Virus record (IMG/VR): IMGVR_UViG_2816332589_000001
Coordinates: 64,001 to 128,000 of that record
Origin: a virus
Lineage: Duplodnaviria; Caudoviricetes
Strand: one strand, 5' to 3'
DNA length: 64,000 nt
Shown: one piece after another, positions 2,252-55,461 of the stretch
Numbering within the stretch: position 1 is the first letter of the stretch
Layout of the letters: each line of letters begins with the position of its first letter
Notes under the pieces: generated by a model
Database searches by the model: none
What the model saw: the letters and a program-made list of their open reading frames with translations, nothing else
What the model was told of the DNA's origin: nothing
Program-made: the position numbers and the translations under genes

Positions 2252-3115
2252 CTACCACATTTGGGGCTTTCGCCGGTCGTTGCCGACCATGCGCAAGACC
2301 ACGGCCCGCTGCCCGACGCGAGATGCCAAGCGGTCACCGAGGACCGCCGCGACCTGGTCGAAGCTCAGGTTCGTGGTGAACAGCGTGGCCCGCCCGCTGT
2401 TGAGCCGTGCGGTGATCAGGTTTGAGGTGTGGGTGCGGACGTGATTCGTGGCGTACTCGTCCATCTCGTTACACAGGTCGTCCAGGATGAGCAGGTCGCA
2501 CCGTTCGTACCGCTCGCGCACGGAGACCGGCGTCAGACCGGCGGGCGCGTTGTTCGGCTGGAGCCACGACAGGTACATCGAGTGCGACACGAACCGCGCC
2601 ATCAGGCCGCATTCGACAGCGAAGGCGCCCGCCGCGGCGGCGGCCACCGTCTTGCCCGATCCGACGCTGCCGTGGGCGATCAGGTGCTGGATGCTGGGCC
2701 GGGCTATGTTGCGCTGCGCCTCCGGCACCTTGAGCTGGTCGCGGTTGTGCTGCCGGGTCTTGGCGAGCTCTTCGACGTACCGGCGCAGATGGTCGGGGAA
2801 CTGCTCCCCATCCAGGGCGGGCAGCCGGTACCGGGCGTAGTCTCCGTGCCCCGACAAGGCCAGGGAGTTCACCCACGCCTGCCGGAACACGTCGCGCTGG
2901 TACTCGTCGGTGCTGTCTGACCGGTCTTCGGGGTGGTCGGCCCTGGCCGGGTCCAGGCCGCGGCGCCGCAGCATCTCCGCGACGGCCGCGACGGGGTCGC
3001 CGGCGCGTACGACCTTCCGGCCTTCCGGTATCGCCGGGGCAGGCATGGTGAGGGACATCTCGTCGTTCCTCCTCTCGTCGGCCGACTGCTCAGGCGGCGT
3101 CATCGGACTCGACAC
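2252..3115 (-). CDS. DnaC/IstB-like AAA+ ATPase (helicase loader)
   Basis: Walker A GSVGSGKT, Walker B LLILDDL, TLFTTNL, RLASR, GNDRR. Confidence 0.9.
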   Translation of the reverse strand: MSSPMTPPEQSADERRNDEMSLTMPAPAIPEGRKVVRAGDPVAAVAEMLRRRGLDPARADHPEDRSDSTDEYQRDVFRQAWVNSLALSGHGDYARYRLPALDGEQFPDHLRRYVEELAKTRQHNRDQLKVPEAQRNIARPSIQHLIAHGSVGSGKTVAAAAAGAFAVECGLMARFVSHSMYLSWLQPNNAPAGLTPVSVRERYERCDLLILDDLCNEMDEYATNHVRTHTSNLITARLNSGRATLFTTNLSFDQVAAVLGDRLASRVGQRAVVLRMVGNDRRKPQMW

Positions 3116-4337
3116 CGAACACGTCGAGGTCGGGCGCGGCCGGGGCCGGCGCGGCGGACTGGGTGCCGCCTGAATCGCCCTGCATCCACTGGTCGTTGGT
3201 GAAGATCGGGGCGCGCCCGCTAGAGCCGGAACGCGGGGCGCGGACGCCTGACAGGCGTCGCAGCTCCTTGTCCAGCGCCCACTTCGTCGGTGTCCAGTCG
3301 CCGATGTTGCCCAGGGCCTGCCAGATGAGCCTGGAGTCGTAGCCTGCTGCCAGGGCCGTACGGATGCGGGTGCGCAGGTTGAGGAAGTAGCCGGTCCGCT
3401 GCCGTTCGGTGTCCGCCATCAGGGGGCCCATCCGCTTGGCGGCCACCAGCTTCTCCGCTTCCTCCCACCACTTGGTGGCGCCCTTCTGCGCCTGCTTGTC
3501 GAGTGCGATGTCCTCGGGCGTCTTGTCCTTCAAACGCTTGAGCATCCGTTCGAACTTGGCCTTCGCCGGGCCCCACTCGCCGATCTCCCGGAGCACCAGC
3601 TTGATCAGTTCCACGTCGTGGCCGGCGGCCATGGCGTCGTGGATGCGTGTGACCAGGTTGGTTCGGGCGCGCTCCCTCTGCTGCTCGGTGACGAGCGGGT
3701 GCAGATGGCCCTGATCGGTCAGGTCCTGCGCCTGCGCCCACCACTCCTCGGCGACCGTACGGGCAGCAGCCTCGACAGCGGTCTCCTGCGGCGGAGCCGC
3801 GGGTGCAGGCTGCCCCGACTTGGTATCGGTATCGGGTTCTGCTGCTTCCTGGACCTTTACCTTGCGGGGACGGCCAGGACCGCGGGAGAGCTTCTGCGCC
3901 TCTTCCTCACGGCGGTGCTTGTAGTGCTCTCCGACGTTGGTCTCGCCCTCGAAGCCAGCGGGCGGCATCTGGTGGACGAGGTAGCGGATGCCCTTGGCGC
4001 CGTTGGGCCGGGTCATCGGCTCGCGGTCGATGGCGTCGGCGTCGTCAAGCTGGTCTAGGTACTGATCGACGGACTGCTCACGGGAGAAGCCGAGGATGCG
4101 CGCAATGGTCTTGCGGGAAGGCCAGCACGAACTGTCGCCACTGGCGACGTTCACGTGCATCGCCAGCACGTTGTAGACGGCCTTCGCCTGCGGAGCCAGG
4201 ATCTTCCCCCGGTACATCGGGTGGGACTTACTGCCCGGGTACAGCGTCACCCAGTCCGGGATCATGGAGAACGGCGCTTTGCGGCCGACCACAACCTCGA
4301 ACTGCTCGTCCAGCTCGTCCATCTCGTGGCTGGTCAC
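3090..4337 (-). CDS. phage-type replication initiator with HTH domain
   Basis: AKAVYNVL...CWPSRKTIARILG winged-HTH motif; directly upstream of the DnaC-like gene. Confidence 0.75.
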   Translation of the reverse strand: MTSHEMDELDEQFEVVVGRKAPFSMIPDWVTLYPGSKSHPMYRGKILAPQAKAVYNVLAMHVNVASGDSSCWPSRKTIARILGFSREQSVDQYLDQLDDADAIDREPMTRPNGAKGIRYLVHQMPPAGFEGETNVGEHYKHRREEEAQKLSRGPGRPRKVKVQEAAEPDTDTKSGQPAPAAPPQETAVEAAARTVAEEWWAQAQDLTDQGHLHPLVTEQQRERARTNLVTRIHDAMAAGHDVELIKLVLREIGEWGPAKAKFERMLKRLKDKTPEDIALDKQAQKGATKWWEEAEKLVAAKRMGPLMADTERQRTGYFLNLRTRIRTALAAGYDSRLIWQALGNIGDWTPTKWALDKELRRLSGVRAPRSGSSGRAPIFTNDQWMQGDSGGTQSAAPAPAAPDLDVFGVESDDAA

Positions 4338-4657
4338 TGGCCCGCTCCTTCCTGAGCATCGTGCGGAGCAAGGCGGTAGGAGATCAAACGGCGGTCTTGG
4401 CGGTCGATGCGGCGCGGTTGTGCGGTCCGTTCTACGAGACCGGTGCGGACGAGCAGCGTGAGCGCCGAGCGGGCCTGATGGTGGGTCATGCCGGCGGAGG
4501 CGGCGAAGTCGTCAGTGTGGTGCCAGTCGCACACGTCGAGGTCACGCCGACGCAGATGCCGTACGAACGCGGTGAGGACCGTCGGGCTGATCCGCCGGGC
4601 GCCGACGAGGTCGGTCGCCTGGTCGATCAGCGCCAAACGGGTGTCGCTGGGGATCAC
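4334..4657 (-). CDS. small winged-HTH protein
   Basis: DFAASAGMTHHQARSALTLLVRTGLVER; overlaps the next start codon. Confidence 0.6.
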   Translation of the reverse strand: MIPSDTRLALIDQATDLVGARRISPTVLTAFVRHLRRRDLDVCDWHHTDDFAASAGMTHHQARSALTLLVRTGLVERTAQPRRIDRQDRRLISYRLAPHDAQEGAGQ

Positions 4658-4720
4658 GAAGCTTCCTTGCGGGAGGTGCCCACCCCCGTCGAAGCAGGGG
4701 TGGGCAGGACGTGCGGACGA

Positions 4721-5044
4721 TCACGCGGCGGGGGCGAAACCCCGGACCTTTGCCTTGTGCTCGGCGGCCTTGCGTATGGGCCCGTAGTCGATGGCCCTGG
4801 CCTTGCCGAGCGACCTCTCTTTGACCAGCGCCTTGCGCTCGACCTCGGTAAGGCCGCCCATCACGCCGAACTCGACGCGGCTGGCCGGGGCGAGCGCGTA
4901 CTCCAGGCAGCGGTCCTGGACCGGGCACCGCGCGCACAGCCCCTTGGCGAACTCCGTCTTCTTGACCGCGCCCGAGTCCGGGAACATGGCCTCCGGGTCA
5001 GTGCGCGCGCACAGCGCGTCGAGCATGAAGTCGGGAACGCTCAT
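4721..5044 (-). CDS. WhiB-family Fe-S transcription factor
   Basis: ALCARTDPEAMFP..AKGLCARCPVQDRCLEYAL..FGVMGGLTEVER (4 Cys and G[V]xGG turn). Confidence 0.93.
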   Translation of the reverse strand: MSVPDFMLDALCARTDPEAMFPDSGAVKKTEFAKGLCARCPVQDRCLEYALAPASRVEFGVMGGLTEVERKALVKERSLGKARAIDYGPIRKAAEHKAKVRGFAPAA

Positions 5045-6279
5045 GCCGCACCCCCGTTGATGCCGTCCGGCTCGTCGCGCAGGAGGCGCCACCGCTGAGA
5101 GTCGCGGTCCCATTTGATGTACTCGACGCCGAAGGGGTCGTAGATCATGCCGTCCGCCCCCATCCAGAAGCCGACCTCCGCGTCAACGAGGGCGTTGAGG
5201 CCATCTACAGCGCGCTGCCACGGCGAAACCGCGCCGGTGGGCTCGCCGAGATTCTCCGGCCGGACCGCGCCCCGCCGGATCTTGGACGCCAGGATCTCGG
5301 CGCCGTCCGCTCGCAACTGGTTGTCACGACTGCCGGTTGCCCGGTACTCACGTGCCTTCTTGAGCAGCCACGCGGTGATCTGTGCGTCGCGCTCGGCGGT
5401 GATCGCCTCGCGGGTAGTGGCCTGCTTCTCCAGCTCGGCGACGCGCGCCCGCAGCCGCTCCACCTCAACGGCAGGGGTGACCCGGTCGCGGGCCCACGGC
5501 CACGGGCAGTTCCCTGCCGAGTGCTCGCCGATCACGTCTACGGGGACGACGGCGTAGGCCAGGGCGTCCGCGGCCTCCACGGCGGTATCCCGCTGCCCGA
5601 TCGTGGCCGTGTGGGCGCGTCGCTCACGCTCCAGCTCAGCCCGCAGCCGGGCGTTCTCGGCCTCCAGGTCGGCGCCCGGCCGGGTGGACTCGCCCTTGCG
5701 GGTGTCCTTCCCGGCCTCGTCGGCGCGCTCCTCCAGCACCAGAGCCGCGCGGTACAGGCCCTCGCTCTGCCGCGCGCGGCCGGGCTCGGGCATCTCGTCG
5801 GCCAGCCGACGCAGGCGACGCGCCTCCTCGCGCAGCATCTCGGCGCGGCCGGTAGCGGCCTGCTGTTCCAGCTCGGCGACACGGTCCCGCAGCTCGTCGC
5901 GCTCCATCTGCGTGGCGAGCGACGCGCCGAACATGTCCTGTACCGCCGTCTGCAACTCTCGGGCTCGGGCCGCGTACCGGTCGGCCGCACTGCCGGTGGA
6001 GAGCGCGCGAGTGCGGGCCCTGCGCCAGGCGATGCAGTAGCGCTCGGCCTCGGACTCGGCGTCAAGCAGCCGACGCAGGATCGGCCTCATGTGCTCGCCC
6101 ATGTACGAGACGAGGTTCAGGCAGTAGAGGTCTTCCCACTGCGGGTGGTCGTGCTCGCGGACGTTGGTGATGATCTCGCCGAACGAGACGACGAGGTCGG
6201 TGCGGGCCGGCTTTGCGTCACCGAGGTGGGCGCCCAGTGCGGCGCGCTGCTCAGCGGAAAGAGGGGAACGGGCGCTCAT
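5041..6279 (-). CDS. phage-like coiled-coil hypothetical protein
   Basis: Start MSARSPLS overlaps the upstream stop; repeated LRxRVAELE motifs. Confidence 0.7.
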   Translation of the reverse strand: MSARSPLSAEQRAALGAHLGDAKPARTDLVVSFGEIITNVREHDHPQWEDLYCLNLVSYMGEHMRPILRRLLDAESEAERYCIAWRRARTRALSTGSAADRYAARARELQTAVQDMFGASLATQMERDELRDRVAELEQQAATGRAEMLREEARRLRRLADEMPEPGRARQSEGLYRAALVLEERADEAGKDTRKGESTRPGADLEAENARLRAELERERRAHTATIGQRDTAVEAADALAYAVVPVDVIGEHSAGNCPWPWARDRVTPAVEVERLRARVAELEKQATTREAITAERDAQITAWLLKKAREYRATGSRDNQLRADGAEILASKIRRGAVRPENLGEPTGAVSPWQRAVDGLNALVDAEVGFWMGADGMIYDPFGVEYIKWDRDSQRWRLLRDEPDGINGGAA

Positions 6280-7011: not shown

Positions 7012-7296
7012 TTCGGGTTGGGTGGACCCCGCGACGGAACTGCCCGCGGCGTGTCTTCATGCACTCGGCCCGTACGGCGAACGGCGGAACGCGCACCCGC
7101 TGAACCGACCCGCCGGGCCCCGGCACCGCCCCGTCCGGACACGTGGGGCGACGCCGGCCGAGGAGCGGCCGATCCGGTCCGGCCATGACGGCACGTCCCG
7201 GTAGCGAGCCGGGACGCCGCGGTTGAAGTCCGCGGGCTCGCTGACCGCCGGCCGCTCCTCACCCCGCCCGTCGAGCTGCGCGACCAGGAGCAGCCC

Positions 7297-18402: not shown

Positions 18403-19620
18403 GTGAAAGACATACTCCACCCCATGTGCCTGGTGATCGCGGGCACGGGGTTCCTCTTCCTGCTCCGCGACCTCGGCAAGTCCCGTCGCGAACCTGCCCT
18501 GACCGCCCTCGCCTGCGTCTTCGGCCTGTCCGCGTTCAGCTACGCCGTCACCATCTCCTGGTCGTGGGTGCACATCGGCGGGTTCTTCGGCATCCCCAAC
18601 CTGTCCGCCCCGCTCGCCCAGGGCAGCGTGCTGCTGATGTTCGCGTGCCAGGCCACCGTCCTGGCGTACTGGACGAGGCCGCCGGCCGAAGCCCGCCGCA
18701 TCAGCCGCCGCCTGTTCACCATCGATGCCGTCGCCATCGCCAGCCTGATCACGCTGTTCACACTGCTCACCCCGGCCACGACCAGGCCCGTCGACTTCAC
18801 GCTGTACTACGCCCACGACCCGGTCTTCCAGGCGTACACCCTGCTGTACTTCGGCACCTTCACCGTCGCCCAGATCTACCTGGCGTGGGTCTGCTGGAAG
18901 TACGCCCGCCGCGCCACCACCCCGTCCATCACGGTCGGGCTGCGCATCATCGCGGTAGGCGCCGTCATCACCCTCGGCCAGAGCGGCCACCGCATCCTCG
19001 CGATGATCGGAGCCTCCGCCGGCTTCAGCGTCAAGGGCTTCGAACCGTACGCCTGGCTCTGCGGCGACCTCGGCGCCACCCTCACCCAGCTCGGCTACTT
19101 CCTGCCCATCCTCGTACGCCGCACCTCCACCGTCCGCGACTGGACGACCGCGCATCTGCGCTACCGGCGCCTGCGCCACCTGTGGGCCGCCCTCGACCAG
19201 GCCGAGCCCGGCATCACCCTGCGCCGCCCGACCCGCCACCGCGACGACCTTCTGCACGGCCGCAGCGCCGCCTTCCCCCTCCTGCGACGCCGCACCGAGA
19301 TCCGCCAGGGGCAGAAGCTGCTGCGTCGCTTTCTCGACCCCGCCGTACGGACCGCCTCCGAAGCCCGGCACACCACCGCGGGCCTGACCGGCGCCGACCT
19401 CGCGGCGGCCGTCACCGCCGACCAGATCCACGCCGCGCTCCTGCGCCACCACGCGAACGACCCCGTCGAGGCCCCGGCCGAGTACGCCGACGCACAGCTC
19501 GATCTCGCTACCACCGAAGACGAGCTGCTTCACCTGATCGCCGTCGCCGCGCACTTCACCCCGCCCCGGCTGAGCGACGCCTCCGACACTCCCAGCACCA
19601 CATCAGGAGCCCGTACGTGA
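18403..19620 (+). CDS. MAB_1171c-family (DUF6545) multi-TM protein
   Basis: About 7 TM segments plus LRHLWAAL and RRRTEIRQG motifs; canonical third gene after XRE and HExxH. Confidence 0.8.
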   Translation: MKDILHPMCLVIAGTGFLFLLRDLGKSRREPALTALACVFGLSAFSYAVTISWSWVHIGGFFGIPNLSAPLAQGSVLLMFACQATVLAYWTRPPAEARRISRRLFTIDAVAIASLITLFTLLTPATTRPVDFTLYYAHDPVFQAYTLLYFGTFTVAQIYLAWVCWKYARRATTPSITVGLRIIAVGAVITLGQSGHRILAMIGASAGFSVKGFEPYAWLCGDLGATLTQLGYFLPILVRRTSTVRDWTTAHLRYRRLRHLWAALDQAEPGITLRRPTRHRDDLLHGRSAAFPLLRRRTEIRQGQKLLRRFLDPAVRTASEARHTTAGLTGADLAAAVTADQIHAALLRHHANDPVEAPAEYADAQLDLATTEDELLHLIAVAAHFTPPRLSDASDTPSTTSGART

Positions 19621-21188
19621 TCGCCCGTCGCACCCTGCTCACCGCCACCACAGGAATCGCCGCCATCGCCATGACCCCTCCCGCTTCCGCCACCACCCGC
19701 ACCAGCAGCACCCGCGCCGCTCGCGCCACGCTCCACCTGGCGCCCGCGCGCACCCAACTCGCCGCCCTGCGCAACCGCGACGCCAGCAGCCGCGACCTCC
19801 TGGAGCAGTACCTCCAGCACATCGCCAAGGCCAACCCCGCCGTCAACGCCGTCGTCACCCTCGACGCTGACGCCGCCCGCGCCGCCGCCGACCAAGCCGA
19901 CCGGCACCTGCGCACTACCGGCAAGCCCCTCGGCCCCCTGCACGGCCTCCCGATGACCGTCAAGGACGCGCTGGAGACGAAGGGGATGCGCACCACCAGC
20001 GGCTCCCCCGACCTCTCCGACCACGTCCCCGACCAGGACGCCGACGCCGTCGCGCTCCTGCGGGCCGCCGGCGCCGTCATCATCGGCAAGACGAACGTGC
20101 CCGTGATGTGCCAGGACATCCAGACGTCCAACCCGATCTTCGGCACGACCAAGAACCCCTTCGACGCGTCGAAGACCACGGGCGGCTCCTCCGGCGGCCC
20201 GGCCGCCGCCGTCGCCTCCGGCTTCACCAGCCTCGAAGTCGGCTCCGACCTCGCCGGCTCCCTGCGCCTCCCGGCCGCCTACTGCGGCGTCTACGCCCTG
20301 CGCACCTCCCGCGGCGCCAGCCCGATCGTGCCCACCCGCGGCCACATACCCCGCCTGCCCGGCTGGGCCACCAGCAGCGACATGGTCACCCTCGGCCCGA
20401 TGGCCCGTACCGCCGACGACCTCGACCTCCTCCTGGACGTGCTCGCCGCCCCCGCCCCCGCCGACCGTGCCGGATGGAAGATCGACCTCCCGGCCCCCAC
20501 CAAAACCAGCCTCGACCAGTACCACGTCGGCATCTGGGCCGACGATGCGTACTGCCGCGTCGACGCCGACACCCGCGACCTGCTCGACCATGTCACCTGG
20601 GCGCTGCGCAACGCCGGCGCGAGCATCGACGCCACCACCCGGCCCATCGACTTCGACGAGTCCAACACCCTCTTCCAGCGCCTGCTGTACGCCACGTCGT
20701 CCGCCACCGCCGCTGACAAGGACTTCGCCGCCGACATCGCGGCCGCGGACAAGATCCCCGCCGACGACCCCAACGGCATCTACCTTCACTCGCGCACGAT
20801 GCGTCACCGGGACTGGTGCGTCGCCGACGAGAAGCGCCAGAAGCTCCGCGGGAAGTGGGCCGACTACTTCGCCGAGCACGACGTGCTGATCACCCCGGCC
20901 GCCCCAACCGCGGCCATCCCTGACCAGACCAGCACTCCGCTCCCGCAGCGCTCCATCACGGTCGATGGCACCAAGCGCCCCTACTACGACCAGACCAGCT
21001 GGATCAACCTGGCCAGCGTGGCGGGCCTGCCCTCGGTGGTCGTCCCGGCCGGCAAGACCGCCGACGGACTGCCGCTGGCCTTCCAGATCATCGGCCCCTA
21101 CCTCGCCGACCGCACGGTCATCGACGTGGCCAAGCATCTCGCGCGACGCCTGCCCAAGCCAGTCCAGCCGCCCGCCTTTACGGCGTAA
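19617..21188 (+). CDS. amidase-signature enzyme with Tat-like signal peptide
   Basis: ARRTLL signal; VKD, GGSSGG, GSDLAGSLRLPA. Confidence 0.92.
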   Translation: MIARRTLLTATTGIAAIAMTPPASATTRTSSTRAARATLHLAPARTQLAALRNRDASSRDLLEQYLQHIAKANPAVNAVVTLDADAARAAADQADRHLRTTGKPLGPLHGLPMTVKDALETKGMRTTSGSPDLSDHVPDQDADAVALLRAAGAVIIGKTNVPVMCQDIQTSNPIFGTTKNPFDASKTTGGSSGGPAAAVASGFTSLEVGSDLAGSLRLPAAYCGVYALRTSRGASPIVPTRGHIPRLPGWATSSDMVTLGPMARTADDLDLLLDVLAAPAPADRAGWKIDLPAPTKTSLDQYHVGIWADDAYCRVDADTRDLLDHVTWALRNAGASIDATTRPIDFDESNTLFQRLLYATSSATAADKDFAADIAAADKIPADDPNGIYLHSRTMRHRDWCVADEKRQKLRGKWADYFAEHDVLITPAAPTAAIPDQTSTPLPQRSITVDGTKRPYYDQTSWINLASVAGLPSVVVPAGKTADGLPLAFQIIGPYLADRTVIDVAKHLARRLPKPVQPPAFTA

Positions 21189-21545: not shown

Positions 21546-21992
21546 TCAGGTGCCGAGAGCGTCGAGCGCTACCCGTTTGCTTGGCCACGGTCCACGCTCG
21601 CCGTCCGTGGCCGGATCGGTCGGCAGGGCCCACCACTGGCGCGGGGCGCGGCGTACGACCCGAAAGCGCCGGCCGGACCACCAGCGGTCACGGGGCAGGC
21701 CCATCCAGGCGTCCCGGGCCCTGACCCATTCCTCGGTGCCGACCGCCTGTGCGATCTGCTCCAGCAGGTCCCGCCGCCGGAGGTGCGCGAAGATCAGCCC
21801 GCCGCCGGTCCCGTCCTTCAAGTGCTGCGCCCAGGTCGCGAAGGCGTTGCCGTGCAGGTGGTCCATGTACGGCTCCGCCGACCACAGTCCGCTCCGCGAC
21901 CGGTGAGCGTGACGCACGACGAGCACCACGCCGTCGATGTCGGCGTACCGCGTCTCCCGGTGCCGCGTGCTGCGCGGGGCCTGCCCGGTCAT
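21546..21992 (-). CDS. hypothetical protein
   Basis: Trp-rich ORF from MTGQAPR. Confidence 0.5.
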   Translation of the reverse strand: MTGQAPRSTRHRETRYADIDGVVLVVRHAHRSRSGLWSAEPYMDHLHGNAFATWAQHLKDGTGGGLIFAHLRRRDLLEQIAQAVGTEEWVRARDAWMGLPRDRWWSGRRFRVVRRAPRQWWALPTDPATDGERGPWPSKRVALDALGT

Positions 21993-22006
21993 CGGGTCGG
22001 TGTAGC

Positions 22007-22429
22007 TCAGGCAGATGTCTGCGGGCCGCACGGCGCATCCTCTCCGTCGCGCTGGGGTTCTTCCGCACCTTCGGTGGTCTCGGGAGCGGAATCGTTCCTG
22101 CTGTCGGCGAGGAGCTGCTTCACGAGCCGGATCGGCACGCCAGTGGCCAGGGCGATATCGCCCAGCGTTGCCCGCCGCAGGGCCAGGGCCCTTACCGCCT
22201 CGGCCAGGGCCGCTGTACGGGCGTCCTCCGCGGCCCGCAGCTGCTCCAGCTCCGGCGTCGTCGGGACGATCGTGACTTCGGCGGTCACGTCGAGGAGTGC
22301 AAGCCCCTCCTCGACGTTCTTGCGCAGCGCCTTCAGCGTCCGCCCGTGCCCGTAGACCCCGTACTCGGGGACGCGCGTCGTCCAGCCCCGGCCGCGCCGG
22401 TCGGCCCGGCACTCGATGGTCTCGCTCAC
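22007..22429 (-). CDS. HicB-like antitoxin with C-terminal HTH
   Basis: GRGWTTRVPEYGVYGHGRTLKALRKNVEEGLAL; ATLGDIALATGV. Confidence 0.72.
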   Translation of the reverse strand: MSETIECRADRRGRGWTTRVPEYGVYGHGRTLKALRKNVEEGLALLDVTAEVTIVPTTPELEQLRAAEDARTAALAEAVRALALRRATLGDIALATGVPIRLVKQLLADSRNDSAPETTEGAEEPQRDGEDAPCGPQTSA

Positions 22430-23640
22430 GCTCCGCTCTCCATGTCCTCGATGACCTGCTGCACGACCAGGTCCGGGATGGGGGTGGGCAGGACGATCTG
22501 CCGGCCACCGATCCGGTACAGCGTGTGCCCCCCGCTGCTGCGCACGGACGTGACGGTGAGTCCGTGCCGGCGGGCCGCGGCGCGGATACGCAGCAGCGGC
22601 CCGCCTTCCTCCGCCCCCGCGCGCAGGCTCGCGGTGACCTCTTGGGCCGCCTTCCACTCCTCCACGGTGACCACCGCCTCGTGCACGGGCCGCGGCGACC
22701 ACACCCATTGCGAGACCGGGTTGTACTTGGAGAAACCGGGGCGGCCGGTGCGGGTCGCCCGACGGTTGTACACCTGGTAGCCGGTGAGTTTCGGGTTGGC
22801 GATCAGGCTTTCCACGCGGTTCCATGTCCACCGGTCCTCGATCGGGTACCGGTCGGGCTCCGCCTCCAGGATCGCGGCGATGTCTGAGCCCGTCAGGTGC
22901 TCCTCGCGCCGCAGCCGACACAGGGTCCGGGCCGCGTCGAACCGGCGCTCGTCGGGATGCCGGGCCAGCTTCTTCTTCGGCCGGACCACGCCGAACCGGC
23001 CGTCCCGTACGGGGGCGTTCTCATCGACCACCGCGATGTACGGGTAGGGCGGGTAGCCGTGGTTCCAGCCGTTGATGGCGTGCTGGATCTGGCCGCCCAT
23101 CGACATCTCCATCAGCGTGGCCCGGTAGACCTCGGCATCGACCTGGCCGTACCGGCGAACGCGCAGCCGGCCGGACTCGGTGCCGCCCGTCGGCTCGTTG
23201 GCGTAGACGACCTCCACGCCGATCTTGCTCAGCTCGTGTTCCACGGTGAGGCTGGTCAGCATGTGGCGTGCCACCCGGTCGGAGCGCTCGGCCAGGACGT
23301 GGGTGACACCGAGCTGCTCGACCCGGTCCGCGAGGTCCTGGAAGCCGCCGTCGCGCGGGGTCGGCACGGCGAGCGCGTCGTACATCTCCTGCGGCGCGAG
23401 GCCCCGCAGCTCCGGGGGCAGCATCCCGGACTCGACATCCCAGAAGTACGCGACGAACTCCTCGCCGGGCTCCAGACGCGCGGAAGCGAGGGAGACCTGC
23501 CTCGGGATGGAGGTGGCCGGGTTCTGGTTGTCCTTGGTGCTGACCCTGCCGAGGAACGCCGAGCGGCGGGGGCGGGAGTCGGCCGGCTCGAAGGCGGGCA
23601 TGTCGGTGAGGTCGATGGGCGGCCCGAATGGATTGGTCAC
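22426..23640 (-). CDS. serine recombinase (resolvase + recombinase domains) with C-terminal HicA-like domain
   Basis: GRVSTKDNQ (catalytic Ser), ESG, DRVAR, PPYPY, IANPKLTG, HEAVVTVEEW; C-terminal AARRHGLTVTSVRSSGGHTLYRIGG. Confidence 0.85.
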   Translation of the reverse strand: MTNPFGPPIDLTDMPAFEPADSRPRRSAFLGRVSTKDNQNPATSIPRQVSLASARLEPGEEFVAYFWDVESGMLPPELRGLAPQEMYDALAVPTPRDGGFQDLADRVEQLGVTHVLAERSDRVARHMLTSLTVEHELSKIGVEVVYANEPTGGTESGRLRVRRYGQVDAEVYRATLMEMSMGGQIQHAINGWNHGYPPYPYIAVVDENAPVRDGRFGVVRPKKKLARHPDERRFDAARTLCRLRREEHLTGSDIAAILEAEPDRYPIEDRWTWNRVESLIANPKLTGYQVYNRRATRTGRPGFSKYNPVSQWVWSPRPVHEAVVTVEEWKAAQEVTASLRAGAEEGGPLLRIRAAARRHGLTVTSVRSSGGHTLYRIGGRQIVLPTPIPDLVVQQVIEDMESGA

Positions 23641-23734
23641 GGCATTCCTATGGAATGAAGGCCCGGTTGGGCGGTGAACGGTAGGAAGGTGGTGTGGCCT
23701 CGGAGCCCGGGGCCTGGTCGCCCCGGGGCCGGTG

Positions 23735-24682
23735 TCAGCGCTGGAGGGCGGCGGCCTGCTTCCACCACATCTCGCGCAGCGCGGCGTAATCGCGGGCCTG
23801 CGCGCACAGCCCGCGGTGCTCGCCCATGCCTCCCGACAGAGGCGTGTGCAGGTGCGGGATGACCGGGCGCAGCAGCTCGGCGTAGTCCTGGCCACCGAGA
23901 AAGATCACGTCGGCGTCGTACGTACCGAGGTCGAAGACCTGCTCAGCGAGCCGCTCGGGCGTGATGGCCTGCGGGTCGCCGATCGTCACGTCGTACGGGA
24001 GCAGCGGGCGCTCCAGGTCCACCAGGCCGTGCCGCGCGGACAGAATCCGGATGAGCGAGGCGTCGGTCAGGGCGTCGGCAGCCAGCCGCAGGGACCGGTG
24101 ATACTGCCCGGTGTACAGCTCCCCCGCCGGGTAGCCCGGGTTGGCGTTCCCGTACTCGTTGTACCCGGGGTGCGGTGCCTTTTCCTGGCCGCACGCGATG
24201 ATCACGATGCGGCGGCGGTGCACGTCGATGCCGCCGCGCTGCCGGGCGTACGTCCGGCCGGCCGGGGTGAGATACAGGGAATAGCCGTGCTGGCCGAAAG
24301 ACGTGGCGTAACCAGCGGCCTGGACGGCGCGGAGGGTGGGGGCGCGGAACCACCTTGCTCCTTCCCAGTACGCGCGGTCGTCCCGGCCGGGTACGAGCTG
24401 ATCGGGACGACCGGCGGCCGTCACGATCGCCTCGTGCTGCACCGCGGGCAGCTTGGGCAGGAACGACTCGACCGCCGGTGCTGGAGCGGGGCCGTGCTGC
24501 TGCCGCCAGTGGTCCAGGGCCGCCCGTCCGGCCTCGGTCATGCGGTGGGTGCCGCCGTCGCCGGCGTGCCGGACGACCAGGCCGTCGGCCTCCAGCCGGG
24601 CGATGGCCGCGGCGTGGCCGGACACCACACCGTCGTCGTGGGCGTCGAGGATCTTTGCGCCCGTGGGGCTGAGCAGGCTCAT
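23735..24682 (-). CDS. DUF6884-domain protein
   Basis: IACGQEK..PAGELYTG..ILSARHGLV..PYDVTI..FLGGQDY. Confidence 0.75.
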   Translation of the reverse strand: MSLLSPTGAKILDAHDDGVVSGHAAAIARLEADGLVVRHAGDGGTHRMTEAGRAALDHWRQQHGPAPAPAVESFLPKLPAVQHEAIVTAAGRPDQLVPGRDDRAYWEGARWFRAPTLRAVQAAGYATSFGQHGYSLYLTPAGRTYARQRGGIDVHRRRIVIIACGQEKAPHPGYNEYGNANPGYPAGELYTGQYHRSLRLAADALTDASLIRILSARHGLVDLERPLLPYDVTIGDPQAITPERLAEQVFDLGTYDADVIFLGGQDYAELLRPVIPHLHTPLSGGMGEHRGLCAQARDYAALREMWWKQAAALQR

Positions 24683-53694: not shown

Positions 53695-55461
53695 ATGGCC
53701 GCCCCGAAGACTCCCACCCCCGCCGTGGCCGCTGCACAGGCCGCCGTCGAGAACCGCTCCGGCATCCGCTCCCGCATCGCCTCCAGCGAAGCTGACCTCC
53801 TGCTGCGCGCCCCGGTCGCGGCCCGCCGTGCCGCGATCAAGACCCTCGACACCGCGGACCTCGCGCACGTCCTGGCCGAGGTCGAGCGGGAGACCGGCAC
53901 CCTCTACGGCCTGTGGGCCGACACCCCCAGCGGGTTCATCGAGGACTGCTTGGGTGAATCGATCTGGAGCAAGCAGCGGGACATCGTGGACGCCGTCCCG
54001 AAGTACAAGCGCACGATGGTCCCCGCCGGATTCGGTGTCGGAAAAACGTTCATCGCCGGGCGCTTGGTGGCGTGGGCCGGAGCGACGAACCCGGTCGGCA
54101 CGATGCTCGTCGTCACCACGGCGACGCGGTTCCGGCAGGTACGGAACCAGCTGTGGCCGCACATCCGCAAGGTCGTCTCCCGGGCGGGCCTGCCCGGCTT
54201 CTGCGACGAAGTGCAGTGGAAGATCCCCGACCAGTGGGGCAACGACGTGCGCGTTGCGTACGGCTTCACCGCCCAGGCGCACGACGAGGCGTCGATGCAG
54301 GGCATCCACGGCAACCCGAAGCTTTTGATCGTGGTGGACGAGGCCGGCGGTATCGCCCGCTCGATCGGCAACGGCACCAACAATCTCCTCACCGGCGAAG
54401 CGGCGCTCCTGGCCATCGGGAACCCGGCGATGGACGACCCCCGGTCGTGGTTCGAGGTGATGTGCGAGGAGGGCGACGACCCGGAGGAGCCCGGCACCGT
54501 CACCATCCCCATCGCGACGTACGACAGCCCCGCCATCACGGGCGAGAAGGTGCCGTACTGCCTGGACTGCCCGCGCTCCGTCGAACCGCACTCCCTCGCT
54601 GTCCACCTTCCTGACCAGGACTGGATCGACCGCACGATCCGCGAGTACGGCGAGGACCACCCGTACGTCATCGCCAAGGTCCACGCGAAGTTCCCCAAGG
54701 GCGGCGGCGGCAAGGTCATCCCGGTCACCTGGGTCGAGGACGCCAAGAGGAACGAGGACCCGACCGGGCCCGGCTGGGTGCGGCTGTGCGACCTCGGCCT
54801 GCCCGGCGAGACCGCCAAGCACACCGTCAAGCGCGGCTCCTGGGTACGCCTCGGCGTGGACGTGGCCGCGGACGGAGGCGATGAGTTCACGATCTACCGG
54901 ATCGTCGGAGACGCGATCGAGCACCGTCACCACTCGTCCGGCTCCGCCAACGACAACCAGGTGAAAGTCGCCAAGCGGATCTTGGAGGAGGTGCACGCCG
55001 CGGAACGGCTGGCGCAGGCCCTCGGCTCCACCGCGAAGGTGCACGTCAAGATCGACAAGAACGGGCTCGGGCACGGCGCCGTGGGCATGCTCGAAGTCTG
55101 GGGGGAGAACGGACAGCACGACTCGGAGATCATCGGCGTGATGGTCTCCGAGTCCCCCGACCGCGACGACCCCGGCGCCACCATGCGGCCCTACCGGAAA
55201 CGCGACGAGATGTGGCTCGCCACCAGGGCCCTGCTCCAGCCCGATCCGGCCACCGGTACCGGCCGGCTGCGGCTGCGCGTGGACCGCGAGGCCGCCATCC
55301 AGCTCACCACCCCAAACCTCGGCAACAACGCCGGCGGCTACGCCGTGGTCGAGTCGAAGAAGCAGATGAAGGCCCGCGGCATGAAGTCGCCGGACCGGGC
55401 CGAAGGCATCCTCCTGGCCGTCTACGAGCCGCACGTCCGCCGCCGCGGACTCATAGCCTGA
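53695..55461 (+). CDS. terminase large subunit
   Basis: Walker A GFGVGKT, Walker B IVVDEAG, IGNP, nuclease LGVDVA..GGD, KIDKNG, KSPDRAEG. Confidence 0.9.
   Translation: MAAPKTPTPAVAAAQAAVENRSGIRSRIASSEADLLLRAPVAARRAAIKTLDTADLAHVLAEVERETGTLYGLWADTPSGFIEDCLGESIWSKQRDIVDAVPKYKRTMVPAGFGVGKTFIAGRLVAWAGATNPVGTMLVVTTATRFRQVRNQLWPHIRKVVSRAGLPGFCDEVQWKIPDQWGNDVRVAYGFTAQAHDEASMQGIHGNPKLLIVVDEAGGIARSIGNGTNNLLTGEAALLAIGNPAMDDPRSWFEVMCEEGDDPEEPGTVTIPIATYDSPAITGEKVPYCLDCPRSVEPHSLAVHLPDQDWIDRTIREYGEDHPYVIAKVHAKFPKGGGGKVIPVTWVEDAKRNEDPTGPGWVRLCDLGLPGETAKHTVKRGSWVRLGVDVAADGGDEFTIYRIVGDAIEHRHHSSGSANDNQVKVAKRILEEVHAAERLAQALGSTAKVHVKIDKNGLGHGAVGMLEVWGENGQHDSEIIGVMVSESPDRDDPGATMRPYRKRDEMWLATRALLQPDPATGTGRLRLRVDREAAIQLTTPNLGNNAGGYAVVESKKQMKARGMKSPDRAEGILLAVYEPHVRRRGLIA

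Follow-up and report, generated by a model that had tools for sequence, protein, structure and literature searches.

Why should a serine recombinase end in a domain that resembles the HicA toxin, and what does the HicB-like protein encoded directly after it contribute to the enzyme? The question is posed by two genes of the IMG/VR virus record IMGVR_UViG_2816332589_000001 (G000), a record of 136,928 bp with direct terminal repeats and a GC content of about 71%, of which bases 64001-128000 were analysed as one stretch of 64,000 nucleotides, termed the window below. The first gene (P0001, 22426-23640) encodes a serine recombinase of 404 amino acids (aa), consisting of catalytic and recombinase domains and a HicA-like tail, and the second (P0002, 22007-22429) encodes a partner of 140 aa; both lie on the minus strand, as do all their parts described here, and both begin with GTG. 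In public records the pair is labelled merely 'recombinase family protein' and 'hypothetical protein'. A preliminary description of the locus had claimed that the recombinase is fused to a HicA-like toxin domain at the place of the usual zinc ribbon and coiled coil, and that a HicB-like antitoxin gene overlaps its stop codon. Our analysis revealed an intact recombinase core that is maintained, together with a tail of probable HicA descent and a HicB-like partner, across several genera of actinomycetes, and we favour the reading that a former toxin-antitoxin pair has been turned into an adaptor.

Recombinase core and HicA-like tail

The recombinase active site is intact in the family. Ser34 (codon 23539-23541), the predicted nucleophile in a conserved G-R-V-S-T-K-D-x-Q motif, is kept in all 124 of the 124 full-length family members, as are Arg32, Gln39, Arg122 and Arg125, and Asp121 is kept in 122 of them; we take these six residues to be active-site positions from resolvase motifs. 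Pfam assigned a Resolvase domain (PF00239) to residues 97-184 with 26.9 bits (cut-off 23.3) and a Recombinase domain (PF07508) to residues 249-335 (22636-22896) with 30.9 bits (cut-off 21.1). The PHROG match was an integrase with an E-value (E) of 1.4e-18, and NCBIfam gave just weak matches to the XisF and CcrB recombinases, far under the cut-off. The AlphaFold2 model of P0001, built from a 24-sequence alignment, was mediocre overall, with a predicted local distance difference test score (pLDDT) of 65.7, and its best Foldseek matches were large serine recombinases or integrases (9dxd, 9tep, 4bqq and 9iu2; E 3e-8 to 7e-7). A zinc ribbon (Zn_ribbon_recom, PF13408) was not found in P0001 even at E up to 10, and the protein ends only 60 residues beyond the Recombinase domain. 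The lack of a zinc ribbon stated in the preliminary description is borne out by Pfam, and the peptide quoted there as the end of the protein corresponds to residues 351-401.

The C-terminal domain (residues 345-404, 22429-22608), which takes the place that a zinc ribbon and coiled coil would normally fill, is the confident part of the model, the last 60 residues forming a block of pLDDT 81-86. A helix at 347-358, strands at 363-368, 372-377 and 380-385, and a helix at 390-403 were predicted, which is the alpha-beta-beta-beta-alpha order described for HicA in passages of a recent survey (Gerdes 2024, PMC10865869). For a reference set, the Pfam model served to collect 25 genuine hicA genes of actinobacteria, which were present in 17 of the 151 genomes sampled, and 21 of the sequences were aligned; L067, L071, L073 and L079 were left out (three truncated matches and one internal stop). 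The profile of these 21 HicA sequences recovers the solved toxins 9svk_A, 1whz, 6g26_E, 4c26, 4p78_C, 6hpb_A and 5yrz_B. Comparison of 132 distinct tails with this profile by hhalign yielded 92.1%, E 6.2e-7 and a score of 33.8 over 46 columns, the close-family tails gave 86.9% (E 4.2e-6, score 30.2), and a second profile-profile comparison with 33 DNA-derived tails gave 89.7% (E 1.8e-6, score 31.6). In the controls, 100 column-shuffled HicA alignments peaked at 15.0% and a score of 18.7, and the reversed HicA alignment reached 0.3%. The resemblance to HicA is therefore beyond chance. In the profile alignments His372 (codon 22525-22527) falls on the invariant His of the HicA G-S-H, which corresponds to G370-G371-H372 in P0001. 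In addition, two of eight other members and fragments scanned with Pfam had sub-threshold HicA_toxin matches (PF07927, cut-off 27) at the expected place, P0186 with 16.6 bits (E 0.0088) and P0185 with 14.0 bits (E 0.056). The ESM Atlas gave no usable match for residues 343-404. Homology of the tail to HicA, including the G-x-H histidine pointed out earlier, is thus supported at the remote level by these profile comparisons.

HicB-like partner and conservation of the pair

The AlphaFold2 model of P0002 had a mean pLDDT of 88.5, with values above 90 across residues 1-110. Its N-terminal domain (residues 1-57, 22259-22429) is predicted to be beta-beta-beta-alpha-beta, with strands 4-12, 15-20 and 25-29, helix 32-45 and strand 51-57; a long helix (59-84) leads to helices 89-96 and 100-113, which make up a putative helix-turn-helix (HTH; residues 85-113, 22091-22177), and the sequence beyond about residue 113 is disordered and not conserved. 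Foldseek against the Protein Data Bank (PDB) placed 2yzt first (prob 0.95) and also returned the HicB chains 6g1n_C, 6g1c_B and 4p78_A together with 3kwr and 3k6q, all with E 0.2-0.9. A profile of the proteins encoded beside genuine actinobacterial HicA, from which 5 of 16 candidate "HicB" neighbours had been dropped as spurious open reading frames (ORFs), hits 2yzt, 6u0i, 6g1n, 6g1c, 1wv8, 6hpb_B and 3kwr, and 2yzt and 3kwr are therefore HicB-family proteins by sequence. Among the predicted viral structures of BFVD the best match was unnamed (E 5.9e-5); further matches, with E 3.8e-3 to 5.3e-3, were the 'HicB-like antitoxin' of Mycobacterium phage Nibb (E 3.8e-3, template modelling (TM) score 0.75, root-mean-square deviation 1.9 over 60 columns) and that of Gordonia phage Skog. 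The hhalign comparison of the partner family with the neighbours of genuine HicA gave 73.7% and E 2.9e-5. The PHROG family 'HicB-like antitoxin' matched residues 62-109, the HTH region, weakly (E 0.0033), and one P0002 homologue is annotated at source as a HicB-family nuclease. The 24 partner relatives scanned with Pfam showed weak HTH matches (HTH_Tnp_ISL3 in 11 and Sigma70_r4 in four) and UPF0150 in three, at best with E 0.06. In agreement with the earlier assignment, the fold of the partner and, to a lesser degree, its profile support a remote homology to HicB.

The two genes are tightly linked across related genomes. Homologues of the recombinase were sought among 5.8 billion proteins, which gave 198 relatives, and in the best 120 of these, to which the figures refer, 114 are 401-411 aa long. 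They come from Streptomyces, Nocardia, Kitasatospora, Amycolatopsis, Umezawaea, Nocardiopsis and Actinocatenispora, and the tail is aligned and conserved across the listed homologues. Comparison of 57 related loci, 52 in species-representative genomes and five in viral contigs, revealed a P0002 homologue directly after the recombinase in 56 of them; the one exception (L058) has a recombinase of 37% identity. In the window the GTG start of the partner shares bases with the TGA stop of the recombinase in the sequence GTGA (22426-22429), as the preliminary description had stated, suggesting translational coupling. A 4-nt (A/G)TGA overlap recurs in 52 of the 56 pairs, three pairs overlap otherwise, and one is an in-frame fusion (L038, Actinocatenispora comari), in which the 524-aa protein P0111 joins recombinase, HicA-like tail and HicB-like/HTH sequence. 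P0183 (453 aa) and the fragment P0309 also continue from the tail into HicB-like sequence. The neighbouring genes of the window recur in at most 8 of the 57 loci, and only the recombinase/partner pair is conserved.

It is hardly conceivable that a frameshift or lost stop codon introduced by sequencing or assembly joined two genes in this record. Nothing was found in favour of such an artefact, and the same length and tail recur in those 114 of the best 120 homologues, in several genera and at 56 further loci, so that the fusion is not the unique case that the preliminary description had regarded as fatal to its proposal. A multi-copy transposon was rejected as well, since a single close copy of the recombinase is present per genome in five of five genomes checked; the record of the window also has one. 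The GTG start of the recombinase is backed by homologues that begin at the same position, and a longer ORF reaching to 23895 was rejected as the recombinase gene because the extension is not conserved among homologues. Nucleotide similarity among the related loci is limited to about 22097-23654, and that to the 56 related loci stops about 15 nt upstream of the recombinase GTG. Sequencing runs comprised one DNA run with 0.05 of the query words, and no RNA run was listed. A perfect 15-nt palindrome with 6-nt arms around a 3-nt centre (23643-23657) overlaps the ribosome-binding site of the recombinase; it is partial in L003 and absent from the other loci.

Scoring of P0001 against 1.84 billion representative proteins yielded 645 relatives. 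The best 150 of the 645 include 13 with the tail, five of them full length (388-453 aa), down to 38% identity. The next relatives, at 36-40% identity, have 600 or more aa and can be aligned only to about residue 340-350, and in five of eight such long relatives Zn_ribbon_recom directly follows the Recombinase domain. In a quick maximum-likelihood tree of the core, for which the tail-bearing proteins were cut after residue 345 and the others after residue 420 and which was rooted at its midpoint only, a branch with a Shimodaira-Hasegawa-like approximate likelihood ratio (SH-aLRT) of 99 separates the 11 tail-bearing proteins from the rest. The family is a distinct actinomycete clade of large-serine-type recombinases, and the distribution of the tail is apparently consistent with a single origin. 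Since the order of HicA followed by HicB-HTH and the overlap of the genes are those of classical hicAB, in the simplest history a deletion would have joined a recombinase gene to the classical hicA-hicB(HTH) operon lying downstream of it and thereby replaced the zinc ribbon. As for a free-standing relative of the tail, a word-based search, which distant ones could escape, found only four short proteins, all with at least 70% identity and likely fragments.

Adaptor, toxin or switch

We propose, at about even chances, that the pair is a domesticated HicA-HicB module serving docking and DNA binding, in which the contact of the two proteins, the DNA binding of the partner and the loss of toxicity are what we infer. 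The zinc-ribbon/coiled-coil module following the catalytic and recombinase domains would have been replaced by a HicA-derived domain, and the coupled partner, with a partial RNase-H-like domain and an HTH, would descend from the cognate HicB antitoxin. Its HicB-like N-terminal domain would dock onto the HicA-like tail as in solved HicAB complexes, and the partner would dimerise and contact DNA through the HTH. The active enzyme would then be a recombinase/HicB-like complex, the partner providing the second DNA-binding or regulatory function of the lost zinc ribbon and coiled coil. The partner might also repress the operon, and any ribonuclease activity would be incidental. A more demanding form of this proposal, which we put forward tentatively, is a two-component serine recombinase. 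The HicB-like protein would here be an obligate subunit in trans that docks on the tail, dimerises, binds DNA and bridges recombinase subunits. It would so assume the tasks that, as far as is known, fall to the zinc ribbon and coiled coil, along with directionality factors, in all characterised large serine recombinases, namely to recognise the site and to control synapsis and directionality.

The adaptor is favoured over a toxin because of a Tyr clade, a variable Gly, a lost second His, the in-frame fusions with the partner and the search that yielded no free-standing close relative of the tail. Seven of the 132 tails lack His372, with Tyr in five, Phe in one and Lys in one. Four of the proteins with Tyr372 (P0041, P0056, P0062 and P0077) form a clade of 81-89% mutual identity, are full length with intact recombinase motifs, and retain the partner at least at L030. 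All 21 HicA sequences have Gly at the second position before the His; only 52 of the 132 tails have kept this Gly. The second His of HicA ('VPxH'), nearly invariant there, is Pro in the main clade and His in some distant members. The main rival, which we regard as a real though distinctly lesser possibility, holds that the tail is a live, mRNA-cleaving HicA ribonuclease (RNase) restrained by a HicB-like antitoxin. If the element were lost, the cell infected or the antitoxin degraded, the RNase would be set free and growth would stop, resulting in addiction or abortive infection coupled to the recombinase. HicA has one essential His, which passages of PMC6159526 place in the beta1-beta2 turn, covered by HicB in the complex, and His372 aligns with it. 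The retention of His372 in 125 of the 132 tails is expected of a live RNase and weighs against the adaptor; it fits both readings, because the same passages have this His in contact with HicB in solved complexes. The argument from the fusions is also weak, because the presumed functional toxins include HicA-HicB fusions (Class 11 in the passages of PMC10865869).

Further support for a live toxin comes from the gene order, the 4-nt overlap and the HTH-bearing HicB, which mirror classical hicAB (Classes 3 and 4), and from HicA domains fused to larger proteins (SMC-HicA), both as described in passages of PMC10865869. The pair is, moreover, cargo of plasmids, plasmid-like islands and a phage-like element with its own tyrosine integrase. 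Against a live toxin, a diverged and otherwise intact clade has Tyr at the catalytic position, the Gly-Ser context before the His is degenerate, and the strict conservation of the recombinase active site would be needless for a pure toxin carrier. In addition, PADLOC gave no match for recombinase or partner, and the Pfam HicA threshold was reached by no scanned member. The catalytic His claimed in the preliminary description therefore stands as regards its position and its wide retention, and is qualified by the Tyr clade and by the variable Gly-Ser before it. We read P0001 as an active recombinase whose tail, judged by its sequence, seems to be preserved mainly for its binding surface; most members might have a live RNase.

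The partner could instead act mainly as a switch, resembling a directionality factor or a repressor, that sets recombination on or off, or its direction, via the tail and has no role in site recognition. The zinc ribbon and coiled coil are where directionality factors act in large serine integrases, and the tail sits where these normally are; the strict coupling of recombinase and partner would suit a switch as well. However, a constitutive subunit better explains why the two proteins are made in strict 1:1 coupling and why natural fusions exist, and we consider the switch unlikely. Switch and adaptor are indistinguishable by computation.

Both resemblances might finally be coincidental; the tail would then be a small alpha/beta domain with no relation to HicA, and P0002 would be an HTH regulator of the ordinary kind. 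No curated model passes its threshold: Pfam gave no HicA match on P0001 and no family at all for P0002, HicB, HicB_lk_antitox, UPF0150, DUF1902 and DUF7387 included. The tail profile searched with hmmsearch against PDB sequences found no HicA chain, and the partner profile no HicB chain, with chance matches only in both cases. Foldseek with the whole recombinase returned serine recombinases and weak unrelated folds, with no HicA chain among them, and the partner reached just E 0.2-0.9 in the PDB search. The negative results for P0001, its tail and the curated HicB families weigh against the adaptor too. Yet two independent weak signals point to the two members of a pair that is already known, and in its usual order. 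The tail reached 90-92% in hhalign with clean controls and the partner 73.7%, two of the eight members scanned carry sub-threshold HicA_toxin matches, and the partner matches HicB-like antitoxins in BFVD. Coincidence is thus quite improbable.

A further point against the adaptor is that neither a recombination site nor an operator was found. The repeats flanking the pair were short and imperfect, as expected in DNA of 71% GC. No promoter-like sites were found around the pair, and the upstream regions of the other loci have just the ribosome-binding site in common. In four Nocardia loci (L018, L021, L026 and L031) a common AT-rich palindromic motif precedes the start of the recombinase by about 50-70 nt and looks like an operator by its sequence; it is absent from the Streptomyces loci and from the window.

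Known systems and genomic setting

Similar to classical hicAB in which HicB binds DNA (Classes 3 and 4 in passages of PMC10865869), the pair has HicA before HicB and an overlapping stop and start, and the tail is predicted to have the alpha-beta3-alpha fold and the His in the beta1-beta2 turn of classical HicA. In contrast to classical HicA, a free protein of 50-100 aa, the domain here is the last 60 residues of a 404-aa recombinase, its sequences have diverged beyond the reach of the Pfam models, the Gly-Ser that precedes the His varies, and the His is lost in one clade. The catalytic domain of the resolvase type and the Recombinase domain at the N-terminal side are shared with large serine recombinases such as the PhiC31, Bxb1, SPbeta and A118/LI integrases, whereas the family has no zinc ribbon or coiled coil, a zinc ribbon match being present in five of the eight nearest long relatives, and has a small partner gene in 56 of 57 loci. 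By analogy with small serine recombinases (resolvases and invertases) that carry a C-terminal HTH, the docked complex would rebuild the combination of catalytic domain and HTH; in contrast to these enzymes, the HTH would be supplied in trans through an interface of the toxin-antitoxin type, and a Recombinase domain is present as well. As described in passages of PMC10865869, SMC-HicA (Class 14) likewise ends a larger DNA-handling protein with a HicA domain, the fused HicA-HicB-HTH of Class 11 resembles the read-through form of Actinocatenispora, and Class 13, of similar size, comprises monocistronic proteins of 340-440 aa with a mainly helical N-terminus and a C-terminal HicA. Our family may overlap with Class 13 to some extent.

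The preliminary description knew of no report of such a fusion, and the same emerged here: the pairing of recombinase and HicA seems undescribed. A full-text literature search returned no paper with HicA and a (serine) recombinase paired in its title or abstract. Passages of the 2024 survey list 14 classes of HicA context, and its main text has the word 'recombinase' a single time, as part of a generic list, and uses neither 'resolvase' nor 'integrase' (Gerdes 2024, PMC10865869). If the proposed adaptor is correct, this widespread natural clade would have exchanged the zinc-ribbon module for a docking domain and a small HTH protein, which would be another way to build and regulate a recombinase. 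To our knowledge, every characterised large serine recombinase achieves site recognition and directionality via its zinc ribbon and coiled coil. The family could yield a compact, partner-dependent recombinase for engineering and may represent a new mode of controlling DNA rearrangement. It would also add a genetic context of HicA beyond the 14 listed in 2024, and in it a toxin-antitoxin interface would be an obvious candidate for exaptation.

The record looks like a large temperate actinophage or phage-plasmid. The window contains a terminase-large-subunit-like gene (53695-55461, plus strand; PHROG E 9e-18) and a replication-initiator-like gene (3090-4337, minus strand), and a tyrosine integrase is encoded at 136265-136804 of the record, at its very end and outside the window. 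No second resolvase-type gene was found in the record, and most of its other large proteins belong to no Pfam or PHROG family. Because the record has this tyrosine integrase, excision of the element is not an obvious job for the recombinase, and the recombinase/partner pair is mid-element cargo rather than an obvious integrase. A role as phage integrase was rejected on this ground and because tblastn gave no match in 50,697 phage records. The relatives of the pair reside on large Streptomyces and Nocardia plasmids, and also in chromosomes beside plasmid-type genes (PcfJ-like, PAPS reductase, actin-like protein and LigA).

Just upstream of the recombinase, the gene at 23735-24682 (minus strand) encodes a 315-aa DUF6884 protein (E 5.5e-12), which also matches the PADLOC candidate PDC-M57A (E 7.5e-12) and, weakly, DpdC. 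Large Streptomyces plasmids commonly carry the DUF6884 gene, and 8 of the 57 loci have it upstream of the recombinase. Comparison of L007 (about 4000-5970) with L005, L020 and L052 showed that the DNA immediately before the recombinase start is a hotspot in a Streptomyces subclade, where segments the size of genes, among them the DUF6884 gene, have been inserted or deleted. The junctions lie 21-57 nt before the start codon with conserved blocks on both sides, and no repeats were seen at them. At the other end of the pair, a 161-aa ORF of coding-like composition (21546-22031, minus strand) shares 25 nt with the 3' end of the HicB-like gene; it matched no Pfam, PHROG or PADLOC family and has no counterpart in the 57 related loci. 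An amidase gene (19617-21188, plus strand; Pfam E 2.7e-100) is convergent with the recombinase block, and a tRNA-Gly (GCC) lies further upstream at 7153-7242 on the plus strand.

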